A stretch of 64,000 nt of DNA from Candidatus Heimdallarchaeota archaeon. Its GTDB lineage: Archaea; Asgardarchaeota; Heimdallarchaeia; JABLTI01. The stretch is from assembly GCA_019058275.1 (NCBI GenBank), contig JAHLVW010000089.1, positions 1 to 64,000 on the forward strand. Direction: 5' to 3'. A model generated the notes under the pieces. That model searched no databases and was not told the DNA's origin. It worked only from the letters and a program-made list of their open reading frames with translations. The first letter of the stretch is position 1. The number at the start of each line of letters is the position of its first letter. The position numbers were made by a program, and so were the translations under genes. Positions 1 through 14,333 of this stretch are shown here, piece after piece.

Positions 1-91
1 AGAGAAGATTTAAAAAACAAAAGGAATAGCAAAAAACACCAAATATAAAAACGGGCGCATGGCTCAGTTAGGTAGAGCGGGAGACTCTTAA
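1..91 (+). repeat. Left arm of inverted repeat (TATA-containing promoter + tRNA-Lys 5' half)
   Basis: 1-36 matches revcomp(14190-14225) at 33/36 nt; 53-91 matches revcomp(14134-14172) at 33/39 nt. Confidence 0.9.
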
Positions 92-160
92 TCTATCGGT
101 CGGGGGTTCAAGCGTCTCAAATTTCGATTTGTTTCGGAATACATCCCACAGCGCCTACCA
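53..160 (+). tRNA. tRNA-Lys(CTT)-like gene with a 31-nt non-canonical intron at 58/59 (112-142); three stem mismatches, possibly non-functional
   Basis: GGGCGCA acceptor; D-arm GCTC/GAGC; anticodon loop CTCTTAA; GGGGGTTCAA^ATCCC T-arm; encoded CCA. The intron forms a BHB (GTTC/GAAT helix, AAG and ACA bulges, CAAAT-TTCG-ATTTG hairpin). Mismatches A7-A66, G28-A42, G50-A64. Confidence 0.8.
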
Positions 161-809
161 TTTCCTTTTTTTCTTTTATCCATCTTCTCATTTTTATTGG
201 ATCATTTCTCTCTGCATCGTGTGTGATTATGAACACTCCCACATTTCTTTTTATGTACTCTTTCTCTTCTTTTCTTTCCGCTTTCACTTTCCATGTTCCT
301 GTTGCGAACACTCCGTTCTCCATATCGTAAAATGGTGCGTGTGTATGACTAATTATTAGTTTATCTGCTTTCTCTATTTTTGGCAAATTCCAGTTTCTCT
401 CTCTCACTAGTTTTTCTTTCAGTCTTCCTGTTGCTACTCGCCACGTTTCTTCTTTCTTTTTCACTAGTCCTATGTTGTGTCCGTGGCAGATTATTATTCT
501 TCCCTCTTCTGACACTAATTTTACATATGGAAGAACTACAATATCCGGTCTATCGAACAACAGATTTCCTTCATGCCCCATTCCCCCTGTAATGAATACT
601 ATTCTTTCTTTCCAACCTTTTTCATCAACCCATTTAAGGAATTCTTCTAGTGCCTTTGCACCTTTTTCTTCGTATGAATCTAGAAAATCTCCATTAAAAA
701 TCATTAAATCCATATCTTCCTCAATACTTTCCACTGCTTTATAAAATTCTTTTTTTAAGCATTCTTCTGCGTCTAGGTGTACATCTCCAAATATTGCTGT
801 TTTCGTCAT
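117..809 (-). CDS. Calcineurin-like metallophosphoesterase
   Basis: Motifs GDVH, GDFLD, GGMGHE (variant of GNHE), CHGH, SHTH. Confidence 0.85.
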   Translation of the reverse strand: MTKTAIFGDVHLDAEECLKKEFYKAVESIEEDMDLMIFNGDFLDSYEEKGAKALEEFLKWVDEKGWKERIVFITGGMGHEGNLLFDRPDIVVLPYVKLVSEEGRIIICHGHNIGLVKKKEETWRVATGRLKEKLVRERNWNLPKIEKADKLIISHTHAPFYDMENGVFATGTWKVKAERKEEKEYIKRNVGVFIITHDAERNDPIKMRRWIKEKKEMVGAVGCIPKQIEI

Positions 810-810
810 T

Positions 811-3156
811 TTATTTTTCCTCAGCTATTATTTCCATAATTTCTTCTCTTATTTTCTCTGTTATTCCTTCTATTACTTGCTCTGTCCATCTTTTTTCTTC
901 CTTCTCTTCTCTTGCAATCAATTCCCTCATACCACCTAGCACTTTGTCAAATTTTCTGAAAATCTGTTCTATATTCCCCATTTCCCCTCCTTTTTCGTAT
1001 ATCACTATTTTTCTTTCCTGATAATTCGTGTATGTTCTAAGTGATGTTTCTGAGATATGCAGTTTTATTTCAATTGCTTTCTTCATGATTTCCCCTAATA
1101 GCTTCATCCTTTGTTTTTCTTGTTCCTTTGTTGTTTTTCTTTCCACTGGCTGTATTTCTATTATTAGTCCCTTTGTTTTCTTATCCCAATGGTAATTTTC
1201 CTTCCATTCCTTTTCTTCTTGATTCTTCTCTCCTAATCTCTCTCCTTCTTTCTTTATACTCCTCCCTTTTTTCCATCCTGTTATTAGCTTCCCATCTCTC
1301 GAGTATCTCATTATCTCATTTGTTTCTTTCCGAATAATCATCCTCCCGTATCTTATTGTTAATTTCCTAAACTGCTGTACTCTTGCTTGTCCTTCTATAA
1401 TAAACAGTGGTTGTTTTAACGTGTTTCTCTTTATATTCGTTTGATAGCAATTCAATTGTTCAACAATTACTTTTTCTTCTCCCAGTTCTAGTACTCTGTA
1501 TATTTCCCCTTTGCTTCCATGTAGTAATAGATTTCCCGGTAAAGCATTCCTAATTATCCGTCCCTCTTCGATTGTTCCAATTATTCTTTCTCTTTCCCCT
1601 TCAGTTACTACAATATTCCATTGTCGTTCTATTGCTCTTATTTGGTGTTTTCTGATGAACGCTTGTACTTCTTTTCTATCGGCTATGTTTACTGTTCTCT
1701 CTAGATATGGTTTTTTTTGTTCCTTTGTTTGCAGCATTCCTTGTGCATGTAGGATTGCTATTGCTTCCTCTATTACTTTCCTTGTTTCTTCGTTTTTATT
1801 TAATTCAATTATCTCTTTTCTTGTTGTGATTCCCAGCATTACTCTTAACAGCACAAATGCCTTTGCTCTTTGTAATGCTTTTGAATCGAACAGTATCCTT
1901 TCTGCTTTGTTTTCTAGTAGTATTTCCTCGAGTTTCTTTGTATTCTTGAGGTAGTATCTATCAATTGTGTTTTCCGGATCCAAAAAGATTGTAAAATTTT
2001 TTTTCTTTTCTATCTCGGGAAATCTTAATCTTCCCATTCTTTGTAATAAACCATTCACACCGGTTATCGGCCAACCAATATTGATTATATGCTGAATATT
2101 TGGAATATCCATTCCTAATTCCATCAATGAAGTTGTAAATACAAATCTTGCTTGCCCTCTATGTGTTCTCTCTACTACTGTTGACTTTTCTTTCCTTGTT
2201 AATTGACTGTTCATACAGACAAATGGTGAGTGTGCTAACACTAACTCTTTCGCTAAACCAGTTTTTTTCATTAAGTGCTTATTGCATTTTGCTACCATCT
2301 CTGACACTTTCTGAATATTATCCACAAACACAATTGCTACTCTACCTATTTTCTGTAGGTGAGGATCTAGTTTCTCAAGCAAAAAAGATTCTAATTTTTC
2401 AGGATCTAACAACATAACTGTAACTGTTCCTCTCCTTGTTTTTCCCTGGAAAACCTCTGCTGTTGGTAAGAATTTGTCTCTTAGTTTTTCTACATCCCTC
2501 ACTGTTGCAGAAGCTAGAACCACACTCATTTTTGGGTTCATTTTCTTTAACACCATAACCATTTCTCTAACATGTGCTAAATAGCTCCCAGAACCTGCGT
2601 GAACTTCATCAACTACTAACATTCCAGCATTCAATATCCAATCTATAAAATTCTCATTTCCTTCTTTAAAACATCTATGGAATAATTTGTCTATAGTAGC
2701 TAGTATGATGTTTGGTGTTATCTTTTCAACATGATCAATTTCTTTCTGTGTTAGATCACCATTATATCGACTATATGTTATCTTCCTACCAGTTCCTTCT
2801 AGTATTTTGTTACAGTACTTTGCTATTCTCTTTTCTTGATCTTCTGCTAACTGCTTTGTTGGATAGATTATGATGGCATTTTCTATCTCACCATTCAATA
2901 ATCTCTCAAAAATCGGAAAGAGGAATGTTTCAGACTTTCCAGAATCAGTTCCTACAGCAATAAAACTATCTTTCCCATCTAGAAGTGCTTGTATTGCTTT
3001 AATTTGGTAGGTATACATTTTATGAGGAAATATTTCTCGCAAACATTTGCCTGTAATCAAAAATCCTACATTTATATCATCTATAAAATAATCTGAGATC
3101 TCGCATAAAGATGAGGGTAATTTAAAAACCGATGTTACACCAATGTTTGAAGTCAC
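811..3156 (-). CDS. YprA/Hrq1(SftH)-like SF2 DEAH helicase with degenerate C-terminal DUF1998-like region
   Basis: Q motif YTYQ; I GTDSGKS; Ia YPTKQLAEDQ; YNGD; II DEVH; III SAT; V TSLMELGMDI; VI QRMGR; C-terminal IVIYEKGGEMG without the Cys cluster. Confidence 0.85.
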   Translation of the reverse strand: MTSNIGVTSVFKLPSSLCEISDYFIDDINVGFLITGKCLREIFPHKMYTYQIKAIQALLDGKDSFIAVGTDSGKSETFLFPIFERLLNGEIENAIIIYPTKQLAEDQEKRIAKYCNKILEGTGRKITYSRYNGDLTQKEIDHVEKITPNIILATIDKLFHRCFKEGNENFIDWILNAGMLVVDEVHAGSGSYLAHVREMVMVLKKMNPKMSVVLASATVRDVEKLRDKFLPTAEVFQGKTRRGTVTVMLLDPEKLESFLLEKLDPHLQKIGRVAIVFVDNIQKVSEMVAKCNKHLMKKTGLAKELVLAHSPFVCMNSQLTRKEKSTVVERTHRGQARFVFTTSLMELGMDIPNIQHIINIGWPITGVNGLLQRMGRLRFPEIEKKKNFTIFLDPENTIDRYYLKNTKKLEEILLENKAERILFDSKALQRAKAFVLLRVMLGITTRKEIIELNKNEETRKVIEEAIAILHAQGMLQTKEQKKPYLERTVNIADRKEVQAFIRKHQIRAIERQWNIVVTEGERERIIGTIEEGRIIRNALPGNLLLHGSKGEIYRVLELGEEKVIVEQLNCYQTNIKRNTLKQPLFIIEGQARVQQFRKLTIRYGRMIIRKETNEIMRYSRDGKLITGWKKGRSIKKEGERLGEKNQEEKEWKENYHWDKKTKGLIIEIQPVERKTTKEQEKQRMKLLGEIMKKAIEIKLHISETSLRTYTNYQERKIVIYEKGGEMGNIEQIFRKFDKVLGGMRELIAREEKEEKRWTEQVIEGITEKIREEIMEIIAEEK

Positions 3157-14048: not shown

Positions 14049-14133
14049 TATTTGTAACCTTCTAGTATTGTTCTAGAAGATTTTTCTTTATAAAGAACTA
14101 AAAATAACTAGGATTGGAGTCCTTCTCTTTTTC

Positions 14134-14225
14134 TTAAGAGTCCTCCGTTCTACCTGGCTGAGCCATACGCCCTTGTTGTTTTTCAACACTTTTTTGCTCT
14201 TCTTTTTGTTTTTTAAATCTTCCCT
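14134..14225 (-). repeat. Right arm of inverted repeat: promoter + tRNA-Lys(CTT) 5' half (14172-14134) with no 3' half downstream on that strand
   Basis: Minus strand reads GGGCGTATGGCTCAGCCAGGTAGAACGGAGGACTCTTAA, preceded by AGGGAAGATTTAAAAAACAAAAAGAAGAGCAAAAAA. Confidence 0.9.
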
Positions 14226-14302
14226 TGTATAATATTTACACCCAATACTTTGTTTTTTCACATTCCAACTTCCATTTTCTTTTTTACTAATTGTTAGCTT
14301 AA

Positions 14303-14333
14303 GTCGGAGGTTCAAATCCCCTCGCGCCTACCA
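14303..14333 (+). repeat. Intron-less tRNA-Lys 3' end (att/TSD-like direct repeat)
   Basis: GTCGGAGGTTCAAATCCCCTCGCGCCTACCA, 27/31 identical to spliced 99-111+143-160. Confidence 0.85.

Follow-up and report, generated by a model that had tools for sequence, protein, structure and literature searches.

Inverted tRNA-Lys heads around a Heimdallarchaeota island: probable paralogues at a rearranged insertion hotspot rather than transposon ends

What are the two inverted arms that bracket the first 14 kb of this archaeal contig? The window (the whole stretch of 64,000 nt analysed, from a Candidatus Heimdallarchaeota archaeon) opens with 36 nt (positions 1-36), of which 33 (92%) are complementary to 14190-14225, as the original prediction had reported, and BLAST lengthens the pair to 1-91 against 14134-14225, with 80% identity over 91 nt (E 7e-14). 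That prediction took the arms for the terminal inverted repeats (TIRs) of a polymerase-less, casposon-like transposon, whose Cas1 homologue would have integrated it at a tRNA 3' end and left 14303-14333 as a target-site duplication (TSD). On the evidence assembled here this is very improbable; the arms are probably heads, each an archaeal promoter with the 5' exon behind it, from a pair of paralogous tRNA-Lys(CUU) genes at an insertion hotspot.

Each arm is followed by a tRNA-Lys(CTT) 5' exon, after a gap of 16-17 nt on both sides (the exons start at 53 on the left and at 14172, on the minus strand, on the right; left and right agree at 33 of 38 positions). Both the nearly equal spacing and the claim that the promoter part is at least as conserved as the tRNA part (92% vs 87%) had been read correctly from the letters. 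The left arm (1-52, plus strand) is the promoter, with a BRE/TATA-like box, of the left tRNA-Lys gene and is similar to the genome-wide tRNA promoter consensus; the right arm (14173-14225, minus strand) is the promoter of a truncated tRNA-Lys copy, and is 58/58 identical in L074, an independent assembly. How unusual is so close a match? The tRNA promoters of this genome have a common consensus, and among 666 pairs of them the median identity is 20/36 and the 95th percentile 24/36; the promoters of the unlinked Val-GAC and Val-TAC genes, on different contigs, are identical at 32 of 36 positions. Beside this 32/36, the 33/36 of the arms is unexceptional for paralogous tRNA promoters in this genome. 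The evidence as a whole points to ordinary paralogy at a hotspot and not to transposon ends.

The left head belongs to a complete, island-linked tRNA-Lys(CUU) gene (53-160, plus strand), the only complete one found. The left arm takes its tRNA portion from the 5' exon of this gene (53-90), and its T-loop is interrupted by a 31-nt insert (112-142), at the same position as in the island-linked tRNA-Lys genes of L074, L075 and L076. ARAGORN accepts 53-160 as tRNA-Lys(ctt) once the insert is removed, so that the tRNA originally proposed here is present, but extends to 160 and not to 170. Run on the intact window, ARAGORN found no tRNA by default and, with introns allowed, still missed all the tRNA-Lys(CTT) copies, while Rfam at its gathering threshold gave only a partial tRNA in the window (38994-39049); the left gene, at 20.7 bits, falls below the threshold because of its T-loop insert. 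In the minimum-energy fold no strict bulge-helix-bulge could be traced for the insert.

The right head (14108-14225) is a truncated relic upstream of a gene for a TPR protein. Its tRNA part (14108-14172, minus strand) consists of exon 1, about 19 nt of a 37/38 intron (whose start has homology to the G010 and G006 introns) and positions ~38-45. Next comes a spacer (14226-14297), homologous to the region upstream of the island-linked tRNA-Lys promoter in L074 and L075; the duplicated unit is therefore longer than the arm. Last is the tail (14298-14333; positions ~41-76) of the original chromosomal tRNA-Lys, on the plus strand, opposite to the adjoining head; the flank genes after it, ribL-like and 445-aa, are those of relatives with an empty site. 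Beside the same flank genes G006, G007, G002, G003 and G010 have an intact tRNA-Lys(CTT) gene with a 37/38 intron, homology to these intact tRNA genes running from ~14298 to 14333. The isolated tRNA 3' end expected beyond the right arm is thus real, about 72-77 nt out, and the locus is, as proposed, a disrupted tRNA-Lys gene, the intact gene occupying exactly that place in G006, G007, G002 and G003. A third, decayed head is found at C2:76923-76958, immediately after tRNA-Gly as in G007, and C2 also holds the genes found upstream of tRNA-Lys in G006 and G007; this decayed head marks the original chromosomal tRNA-Lys site.

Could the right-hand pieces instead be a working split tRNA of the Nanoarchaeum kind, its halves made from divergent transcripts that are then joined in trans? 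They do stand back to back, ~125 nt apart, with an A/T-rich box upstream of each, and ~14 nt of pairing could occur between a trailer rich in purines and a leader rich in pyrimidines. However, positions 38-40 are missing from the tail, which precludes an anticodon stem, and the putative duplex has low complexity and ends ~13 nt from the tail, leaving no bulge-helix-bulge at the junction such as the Nanoarchaeum type would have. In L075, moreover, a truncated head of the same kind and a tail lie ~19 kb apart on one strand, and the window has its complete tRNA-Lys(CUU) at 53-160. We find this idea scarcely credible.

The 3' part of the left tRNA-Lys (99-111 joined to 143-160) forms a direct repeat with 14303-14333: the two agree at 27 of 31 nt, and the 31-nt insert is present in one copy only. 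What had been taken for a TSD is indeed a displaced piece, the tail of the chromosomal tRNA-Lys, but it is not short and exact. Casposon TSDs are exact and 14-15 bp long, and although tRNA 3' ends are known casposon targets (PMC9939771), the geometry is wrong for TIRs: the left repeat copy (99-160) lies inside the left arm, and the right arm is separated from the tail by the gap of 72-77 nt already mentioned. The arrangement has the repeats from the tRNA 3' part, and the intact tRNA at one end, of an integrase-type tRNA island, a combination found also at C33 and in G010.

The contig begins at window position 1, exactly at the left arm, which the assembly has cut. The tRNA 3' end predicted about 80 nt further left is not seen: a 281-nt Logan contig that runs 109 nt left of the window has there another 5'-half-like piece, in direct orientation, and upstream of the homologous head in G004 (C145) there is only a phosphoesterase gene fragment and no tRNA end, which again counts against a casposon. 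In the Logan contigs of the probable source run positions 1-172 are confined to that separate contig (depth 5.3), and 226-16000 form one contig of depth 12.9; because of this difference in depth, the left head may be linked to this island in part of the population only. The same break, the start of the contig exactly at the arm and the matches of 169-213 to paralogous Logan contigs would also suit an assembly error across a repeat of paralogous islands, with the inverted pair not on one molecule. Such an error is improbable, as tRNA-Lys abuts the phosphoesterase gene in four other assemblies (G004:C145, L074, L075 and L076), and L075 has the same inverted head pair on one contig. An independent Logan contig from the probable source sample runs unbroken across the right junction. 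Among the Logan contigs of this run there were no circle, excision or inversion joints, a result of little weight, as such contigs drop rare forms.

Do the heads delimit a mobile unit? The block between them is collinear in the window and L075 (78-81% identity) and the DNA outside differs, as would also be expected of a mobile unit bounded by the heads, a casposon included. Against this, window 12829-17070, within which the right head, spacer and tail fall, is 97.5% identical in L074 (97-100% for right arm, spacer and tail), yet L074 does not have the island in that place or orientation: its island lies elsewhere, is only 75% identical and is in the opposite orientation, and its two heads are direct repeats 3.4 kb apart. 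L075 has an internal complete tRNA-Lys on the strand opposite to its truncated head and tail, and in G004 the heads are duplicated over 560 bp at 90%. No homologue of the 427-aa neighbour of the L074 and L075 heads was found in the window's genome. The complete paralogous island at tRNA-Pro (C33) has 33-40-nt imperfect direct repeats, and no inverted repeats at its ends. The boundaries given by these comparisons are at 12829 (inside a LAGLIDADG gene) or at 14316 (inside the tRNA tail, where the G004 backbone ends), never at an arm edge. Finally, members of the family in this one genome have no more than 22-52% protein identity, and so are not recent transposition copies. That the arms serve as TIRs is, then, not supported.

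What does the island carry? Next to the left tRNA is a gene for a metallophosphoesterase (117-809, minus strand; Pfam Metallophos E 1.8e-7), its last codons antisense over the tRNA 3' end; an exact-protein look-up found it on no other contig, and the tRNA-to-phosphoesterase junction recurs at tRNA-Pro (C33) and tRNA-Glu (C19). There follow, all on the minus strand, genes for a DEAD/DEAH helicase (811-3156; YprA/Lhr/Cas3-like), a winged-helix/HTH protein (3159-3716; weak TrmB/HTH matches), a 503-aa Cas1-fold protein (3698-5209), a 693-aa partner (5184-7265; fused to the Cas1-fold protein in distant paralogues, and helicase-like by a weak feature search only), a 257-aa cassette protein of no family (7258-8031), a HEAT-repeat protein (8162-8857) and a 732-aa protein with a C-terminal NERD nuclease-like domain (8884-11082). 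The last of these forms a divergent pair with a LAGLIDADG endonuclease gene (11395-13074, plus strand), beyond which the TPR gene (13071-14048, minus strand) lies directly downstream of the truncated right head, the head and TPR gene being kept together as a unit in L074 and L075. The ten island ORFs gave no match to DNA polymerase families (Pfam, NCBIfam), so that the PolB of casposons is lacking, and none to PF00589, the six genome matches to which are all on other contigs; there is no tyrosine or serine recombinase next to the att site, as there would be in an integrase-type island. On the absence of PolB and of a Pfam tyrosine recombinase the original prediction was right, and a casposon without its polymerase would show the same.

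The Cas1-fold protein also speaks for such an element. It is, as far as its modelled fold can tell, a real but very diverged Cas1-like protein, as had been claimed, and casposase is among the top fold-search matches. The Pfam Cas_Cas1 model does not match the ORF, and a profile of the family found no match among PDB sequences; the link to Cas1 is drawn only from fold search and hhalign. The catalytic residues of Cas1 are, in E. coli numbering, E141, H208, D218 and D221. By hhalign, E189 (the true EG glutamate), H271 and D286 align with Cas1, and they are invariant in 17 sequences. The supposed 'substituted active site' was largely a misalignment: only the fourth acidic residue is changed, position 289 being Asn in the island copy and the corresponding residue Asp in 14/17 relatives.

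Nor is this protein, which had been put forward as the only integrase-fold candidate, the only one that might cut DNA. The 559-aa double-motif LAGLIDADG endonuclease, which has an XRE-type HTH and of which the genome contains more than 20 copies, is another candidate for a mobility enzyme: its model (pLDDT 90.7) matches I-DmoI at TM 0.7 by target, the double fold is present, and the two acidic residues of the active site, D180 and D275, do not vary among 27 sequences. From 12829 onwards its gene is part of the backbone shared with L074 at 97.5%.

Might the Cas1-fold protein, with its partner (fused or adjacent), helicase and phosphoesterase, still move islands to tRNA 3' ends, the tail repeats being its footprints and the inverted heads incidental? 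Three different tRNAs of this genome (Lys, Pro and Glu), and tRNA-Lys in G004, L074, L075 and L076, have the phosphoesterase side of the cassette directly at their 3' end, the C84 and C33 islands have no integrase, and the catalytic residues are intact in most family members. We nevertheless think it unlikely. Direct repeats vary from 18 to ~45 nt among relatives, and one copy here carries an intron, a better fit to an att copy borne by the element than to a duplication. In G010 an island of 12.8 kb at tRNA-Pro has perfect repeats of 29-30 nt with neither Cas1-like cassette nor integrase; the island copy has its Asn at the fourth catalytic position; and the cassette may equally be defence or repair cargo (there are BrxH/Cas3/Dpd-like helicase matches). 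Less likely again, and frankly speculative, is the bolder idea that these are polymerase-less Heimdall mobile elements in which the Cas1-fold protein and its partner insert at tRNA 3' ends, copying ~30-40 nt of target at each insertion, a living intermediate between casposons and CRISPR repeat duplication, with heads and tails as scars.

How does the hotspot reading compare with known systems? tRNA genes are hotspots of archaeal and bacterial islands, with att direct repeats derived from the 3' portion of the tRNA (Williams, 2002, cited in PMC8813620), and elements of Heimdallarchaeum integrate at tRNA genes (PMC8813620). Like such islands, ours is bordered on one side by a complete tRNA and on the other by a 3' tail that has been displaced. 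The genome and its relatives have many scattered pieces of tRNA 3' ends, the relatives with several tails in series; empty sites are present in sister species, and island cargo differs between close relatives. Unlike them, neither the window island nor the complete C33 paralogue has a tyrosine or serine recombinase, extra promoter-bearing 5' heads are scattered in both orientations, and the complete tRNA comes with a promoter of its own and with an additional insert in its T-loop. With casposons of family 2 (Aciduliprofundum boonei, Methanosarcina; PMC9939771) the islands share a Cas1-fold protein with catalytic E/H/D, an association with tRNA 3' ends and a size of 8-20 kb; but they have neither PolB nor terminal inverted repeats at element ends, their repeats are imperfect and of 18-45 nt, not 14-15 bp, and their Cas1 relative is invisible to Pfam Cas1 and paired or fused with the 690-aa partner, alongside helicase and phosphoesterase. 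In its divergence it is comparable with the extremely diverged Cas1 homologues of Asgard genomes, some of them suspected in new mobile elements (Makarova et al., 2020, as cited in PMC8730458). The 559-aa protein has the double-motif fold and catalytic residues of LAGLIDADG homing endonucleases (I-DmoI, PI-PfuI), but lies outside any intron or intein, has extra N-terminal and HTH domains, and occurs in its many diverged copies always near helicase-phosphoesterase cassettes. Its position near a tRNA recalls HeimM2 of Heimdallarchaeum, in which a homing-endonuclease-like gene beside a tRNA has been proposed to act in site-specific insertion (PMC8813620).

The history of the hotspot can be sketched as follows. 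In this lineage the tRNA-Lys of the chromosome is broken, with its tail left beside the conserved flank genes and a decayed head on C2; a further truncated head is now upstream of the TPR gene, on the opposite strand; and heads, tails and islands occur in varying combinations and orientations among related genomes. The inverted arrangement would have arisen by serial insertions, at least one inversion and recombination among repeats, these being tRNA heads, tRNA tails and LAGLIDADG gene paralogues. Inverting 14108-14297 alone would bring head and tail together again with an overlap of 5-7 nt, though so small an inversion is not distinguishable from a larger one of an L075-like arrangement. The arms would have had no role as integrase recognition ends, and would at most be substrates for homologous recombination, by which the intervening DNA could be flipped or deleted. 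The enclosed 14 kb would be part of a diverged, multi-copy family of tRNA-adjacent islands, built from a Cas1-fold/helicase/phosphoesterase cassette and a LAGLIDADG-NERD module, and the islands appear to bring in a tRNA-Lys gene of their own, with its intron, the chromosomal one being destroyed.

Transposon termini made up of half a tRNA and its promoter would, if true, have been of a new kind. What keeps its value is the presence, in the archaeal group closest to eukaryotes, of diverged, multi-copy tRNA-adjacent islands that combine a Cas1-fold protein, with an intact catalytic set in most family members, and a highly amplified LAGLIDADG endonuclease, and have no recognisable integrase. Which enzyme moves them bears on the recruitment of Cas1 between mobile elements and CRISPR, and also on why archaeal tRNA genes are interrupted.

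The assembly that includes contig C84 totals 4.1 Mb in 118 contigs at 32% G+C; close homologues of its proteins are catalogued under Candidatus Heimdallarchaeota. C84 starts at position 1 of the window, so the assembly gives no sequence directly to its left. The inverted arms noticed at 1-36 and 14190-14225 are real: a repeat search recovered them as 36 nt, 92% complementary, and BLAST extended the similarity to 1-91 versus 14134-14225 (80%, E 7e-14). A TTTAAAAA-type box is present in both, and the 5' exon of a tRNA-Lys(CTT) gene begins 16-17 nt after each arm, at the near-equal distance that had been claimed. 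We consider it probable that the arms are duplicated tRNA-Lys gene heads (promoter plus 5' exon) at a hotspot. The left gene (53-160) is complete, being called by ARAGORN as tRNA-Lys(ctt) once 112-142 is removed. The right copy, on the minus strand from 14172 to near 14108, comprises exon 1, then about 19 nt matching the beginning of the 37/38 intron in relatives, and lastly a few nucleotides of exon 2; past its end there is unrelated sequence and then the TPR gene. The isolated tRNA end noted beyond the right arm was also found, as a plus-strand tail at 14298-14333 corresponding to tRNA positions about 41-76. A palindrome at 14286-14296 (4 bases, a 3-base spacer and 4 bases) lies exactly at the junction of spacer and tail, and in two contigs of other assemblies (L074 and L075) its motif recurs at the outer boundary of the duplicated promoter unit. 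At the left gene, the final c. 14 codons of the phosphoesterase ORF are antisense to the tRNA 3' end and insert (117-160), a stretch that is unconserved among paralogues. Elsewhere in the window, a partial tRNA at 38994-39049 (Rfam 37 bits, model 9-63; absent from the ARAGORN output) is probably another interrupted tRNA gene.

The original prediction took the arms for terminal inverted repeats of a PolB-less casposon-like element. How much identity, then, do tRNA promoters show in this genome, where the tRNA genes have a strong upstream consensus in common? When the 70 nt upstream of each tRNA gene were compared in all 666 pairings and scored by the best 36-nt window, the median was 20 matches and the 95th percentile 24; the arms matched unrelated tRNA promoters at up to 27/36, and the promoters of the unlinked Val-GAC (contig C19) and Val-TAC (C41) genes agree at 32/36. 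Because unlinked tRNA promoters come so close, the 33/36 identity of the arms shows that the two tRNA-Lys gene heads share an ancestor, and selection on a transposase-binding end is not required to explain it. The same prediction called for a tRNA 3' end to the left of the window. A 281-nt Logan contig, independently assembled from the probable source sequencing run, spans 1-172 and extends 109 nt leftward; roughly 73 nt to the left of position 1, a segment matches 14134-14163 (26/30) and is oriented as one more 5' half, forming a direct repeat with the left gene; this segment is not a tRNA 3' end. The depth of this contig is only 5.3, against 12.9 for the one that spans 226-16000, so the left junction may be heterogeneous.

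Three contigs of other assemblies were reached through homologues of the 503-aa protein encoded by the island. One (L076) has the same ten-gene order up to the phosphoesterase gene, followed by a convergent tRNA-Lys, and shows no further fragment of a tRNA-Lys within 21 kb. L075 has the window's block in mirror image (promoter and truncated head, TPR gene, LAGLIDADG gene and onward to the phosphoesterase gene), followed by a complete tRNA-Lys of opposite orientation to the truncated head and, 4.7 kb past this complete gene, by a tail that shares the strand of the truncated head; judged from this layout, it reads as a tRNA-Lys split by about 19 kb of DNA, inside which a replacement tRNA-Lys would reside. 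L074 is the most revealing of the three. Its 17257-21500 is 97.5% identical to window 12829-17070, a match running from the final 80 LAGLIDADG codons through the TPR gene, the truncated head and the tail as far as the ribL-like and 445-aa genes (right-head promoter 58/58, spacer 76/76), whereas the island (1-11034) is only 75% identical and oppositely oriented; the complete tRNA-Lys and truncated head of L074 are direct repeats 3.4 kb apart. The right arm therefore lies in stable backbone, beside which the island has been exchanged. In the comparison with the related genome G004, near-identical backbone (94%) begins at 14316, inside the tail, so neither comparative boundary is at an arm. Head sequences fall into at least three types, which are paired differently with bodies across genomes, and G004 has two heads duplicated over 560 bp at 90%, a unit that includes an upstream phosphoesterase-gene fragment and no tRNA tail. 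Plain homologous exchange at such repeated tRNA pieces is a rather unlikely means of moving the island.

The original chromosomal site can be recognised in four genomes of the same genus (G006, G007, G002 and G003), in which the ribL-like and 445-aa genes found after 14333 in the window have, about 1 kb away, an intact tRNA-Lys(CTT) gene whose intron is canonical; these loci are empty sites. The tRNA-Lys directly follows tRNA-Gly in the last three, and the genes upstream of it in G006 and G007 are orthologous to those at the right end of contig C2. There, tRNA-Gly(GCC) (C2:76832-76906) is followed by a decayed tRNA-Lys 5' half (C2:76923-76958) whose sequence stops in the region of the anticodon. 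From this synteny and the decayed head, it follows that the chromosomal tRNA-Lys has been split, its head being on C2 and its tail at 14298-14333, with at least 16 kb between them (C84:1-14297, the end of C2 and the unassembled stretch joining the two), so the inserted DNA does not end at the left arm. The proposal that 14303-14333 is a target duplication was right about insertion at a tRNA gene, but the empty-site relatives identify this piece as the original tRNA end. The right end of C2, which by synteny adjoins the window, carries apparent Illumina Nextera adapter read-through and a poly-A run (G000:C2:78470-78540), a contig-end assembly artefact. The island-linked tRNA-Lys(CUU) has an insert of about 31 nt at an identical T-loop position in four genomes (window 112-142; L074:15040-15177; L075:15033-15170; L076:15035-15172), the last three having the 37/38 intron as well; the T-loop insert is missing from the empty-site genes and the displaced tail, and no strict bulge-helix-bulge could be drawn for it.

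The Cas1 homology of ORF 3698-5209 was borne out, despite the lack of any match from Pfam, NCBIfam or PADLOC. An AlphaFold model of the 503-aa product (17 sequences, pLDDT 70, pTM 0.69) gave, in a Foldseek search of the PDB, 50 listed matches that were all Cas1 or casposase chains, the best among those listed being 4n06 (E 4.5e-9) and the casposase 6opm (1.8e-8), and hhalign against 23 Heimdall Cas1 proteins aligned the EG, GFxH and LDxxD/E motifs (85.7% probability, 258 columns). The supposed substitution in the active site, Gln for Glu, arose from the wrong motif: E189, H271 and D286 are invariant in the 17-sequence family, and position 289 carries Asp in 14 of the 17, the exceptions being this copy and its two nearest relatives, which have Asn. 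An exhaustive profile search found only 47 clusters among 1.84 billion representatives, many of them long fusions; in both remote members scanned (P0073 and P0077, of 1150-1600 aa) the Cas1-like part is preceded by a PD-(D/E)XK (PDDEXK_1) nuclease domain. A 619-aa protein of contig C48 (L039:886-2745, minus strand), with an N-terminal HTH, is barely at the Pfam Cas_Cas1 cut-off (22.8 bits) and aligns with the 503-aa family profile (hhalign 94.6%); its gene is a few kilobases from another LAGLIDADG/NERD pair. Diverged Asgard Cas1 homologues, some suspected in new mobile elements, have been described (Makarova 2020, as cited in PMC8730458). Of the casposon hallmarks compared, the island has the Cas1 fold only and departs in polymerase, terminal repeats and duplication length, and we think it improbable that the Cas1-fold protein mobilises it.

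The product of ORF 11395-13074 is modelled (pLDDT 90.7) as a double-motif LAGLIDADG endonuclease, matching I-DmoI (TM 0.7 by target) and intein endonucleases (E 1e-9); its two catalytic acidic residues show no variation. The genome has more than 20 diverged copies of the gene, most of them arranged divergently with a gene for a NERD-domain protein and a few kilobases or less from helicase-phosphoesterase cassettes. The backbone/island boundary with L074 falls inside this gene, which fits the idea that islands are swapped partly through recombination between LAGLIDADG paralogues or endonuclease-provoked repair; a comparable role has been proposed for a homing-endonuclease-like gene of HeimM2 (Wu et al., PMC8813620). 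As an account of the mobility of this island, LAGLIDADG-provoked recombination is conceivable, if doubtful.

The phosphoesterase/helicase/wHTH/503-aa/693-aa/257-aa cassette is also present on contigs C33, C19 and C52 (39-63% protein identity), following tRNA-Pro(TGG) on C33 and tRNA-Glu(TTC) on C19. Distant versions (22-36%) are on C93, C106, C17, C11, C50 and C101, the 503-aa and 693-aa parts being only on C93 and C106, where they form one chain of about 1000 aa (L033:2945-5947 and L032:11909-14974, respectively); on C50 the helicase and phosphoesterase are also fused. The C33 island is complete, extending 14.2 kb from the tRNA to a 33-nt copy (91%) of the tRNA's 3' portion, with a second copy 1.1 kb beyond the first; the repeats run a few bases past the CCA end, and the island ends have neither inverted repeats nor an inverted head. 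A tRNA-Pro island in G010 (L089, G010:C39:7500-22500) is 12.8 kb long with a perfect 29-30-nt direct repeat and no integrase; quite unlike the C33 island, it carries a caspase-like protease, an ABC transporter, a subtilase that has TSP3 repeats, and an LVIVD-repeat protein, together with a LAGLIDADG gene fragment. Pfam tyrosine recombinases are encoded on six other contigs of our genome, and a trans-acting or lost recombinase using tRNA-tail att sites is a possible, still tentative, agent of mobility. Tails are numerous: G010 has an intact tRNA-Lys gene followed by three more in direct orientation, G004 has two further tails plus an 18-nt one beside the flank, and at least 16 further tRNA fragments in our genome are nearly all 3' tails. 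In G004, the closest relative, tandem-repeat arrays with units of about 126 nt and 190 nt sit between the tRNA-Lys fragments (L024, G004:C455, 3260-3855 and 6000-7070). On the distribution of these fragments, tRNA 3' ends are repeatedly used insertion sites in this genus.
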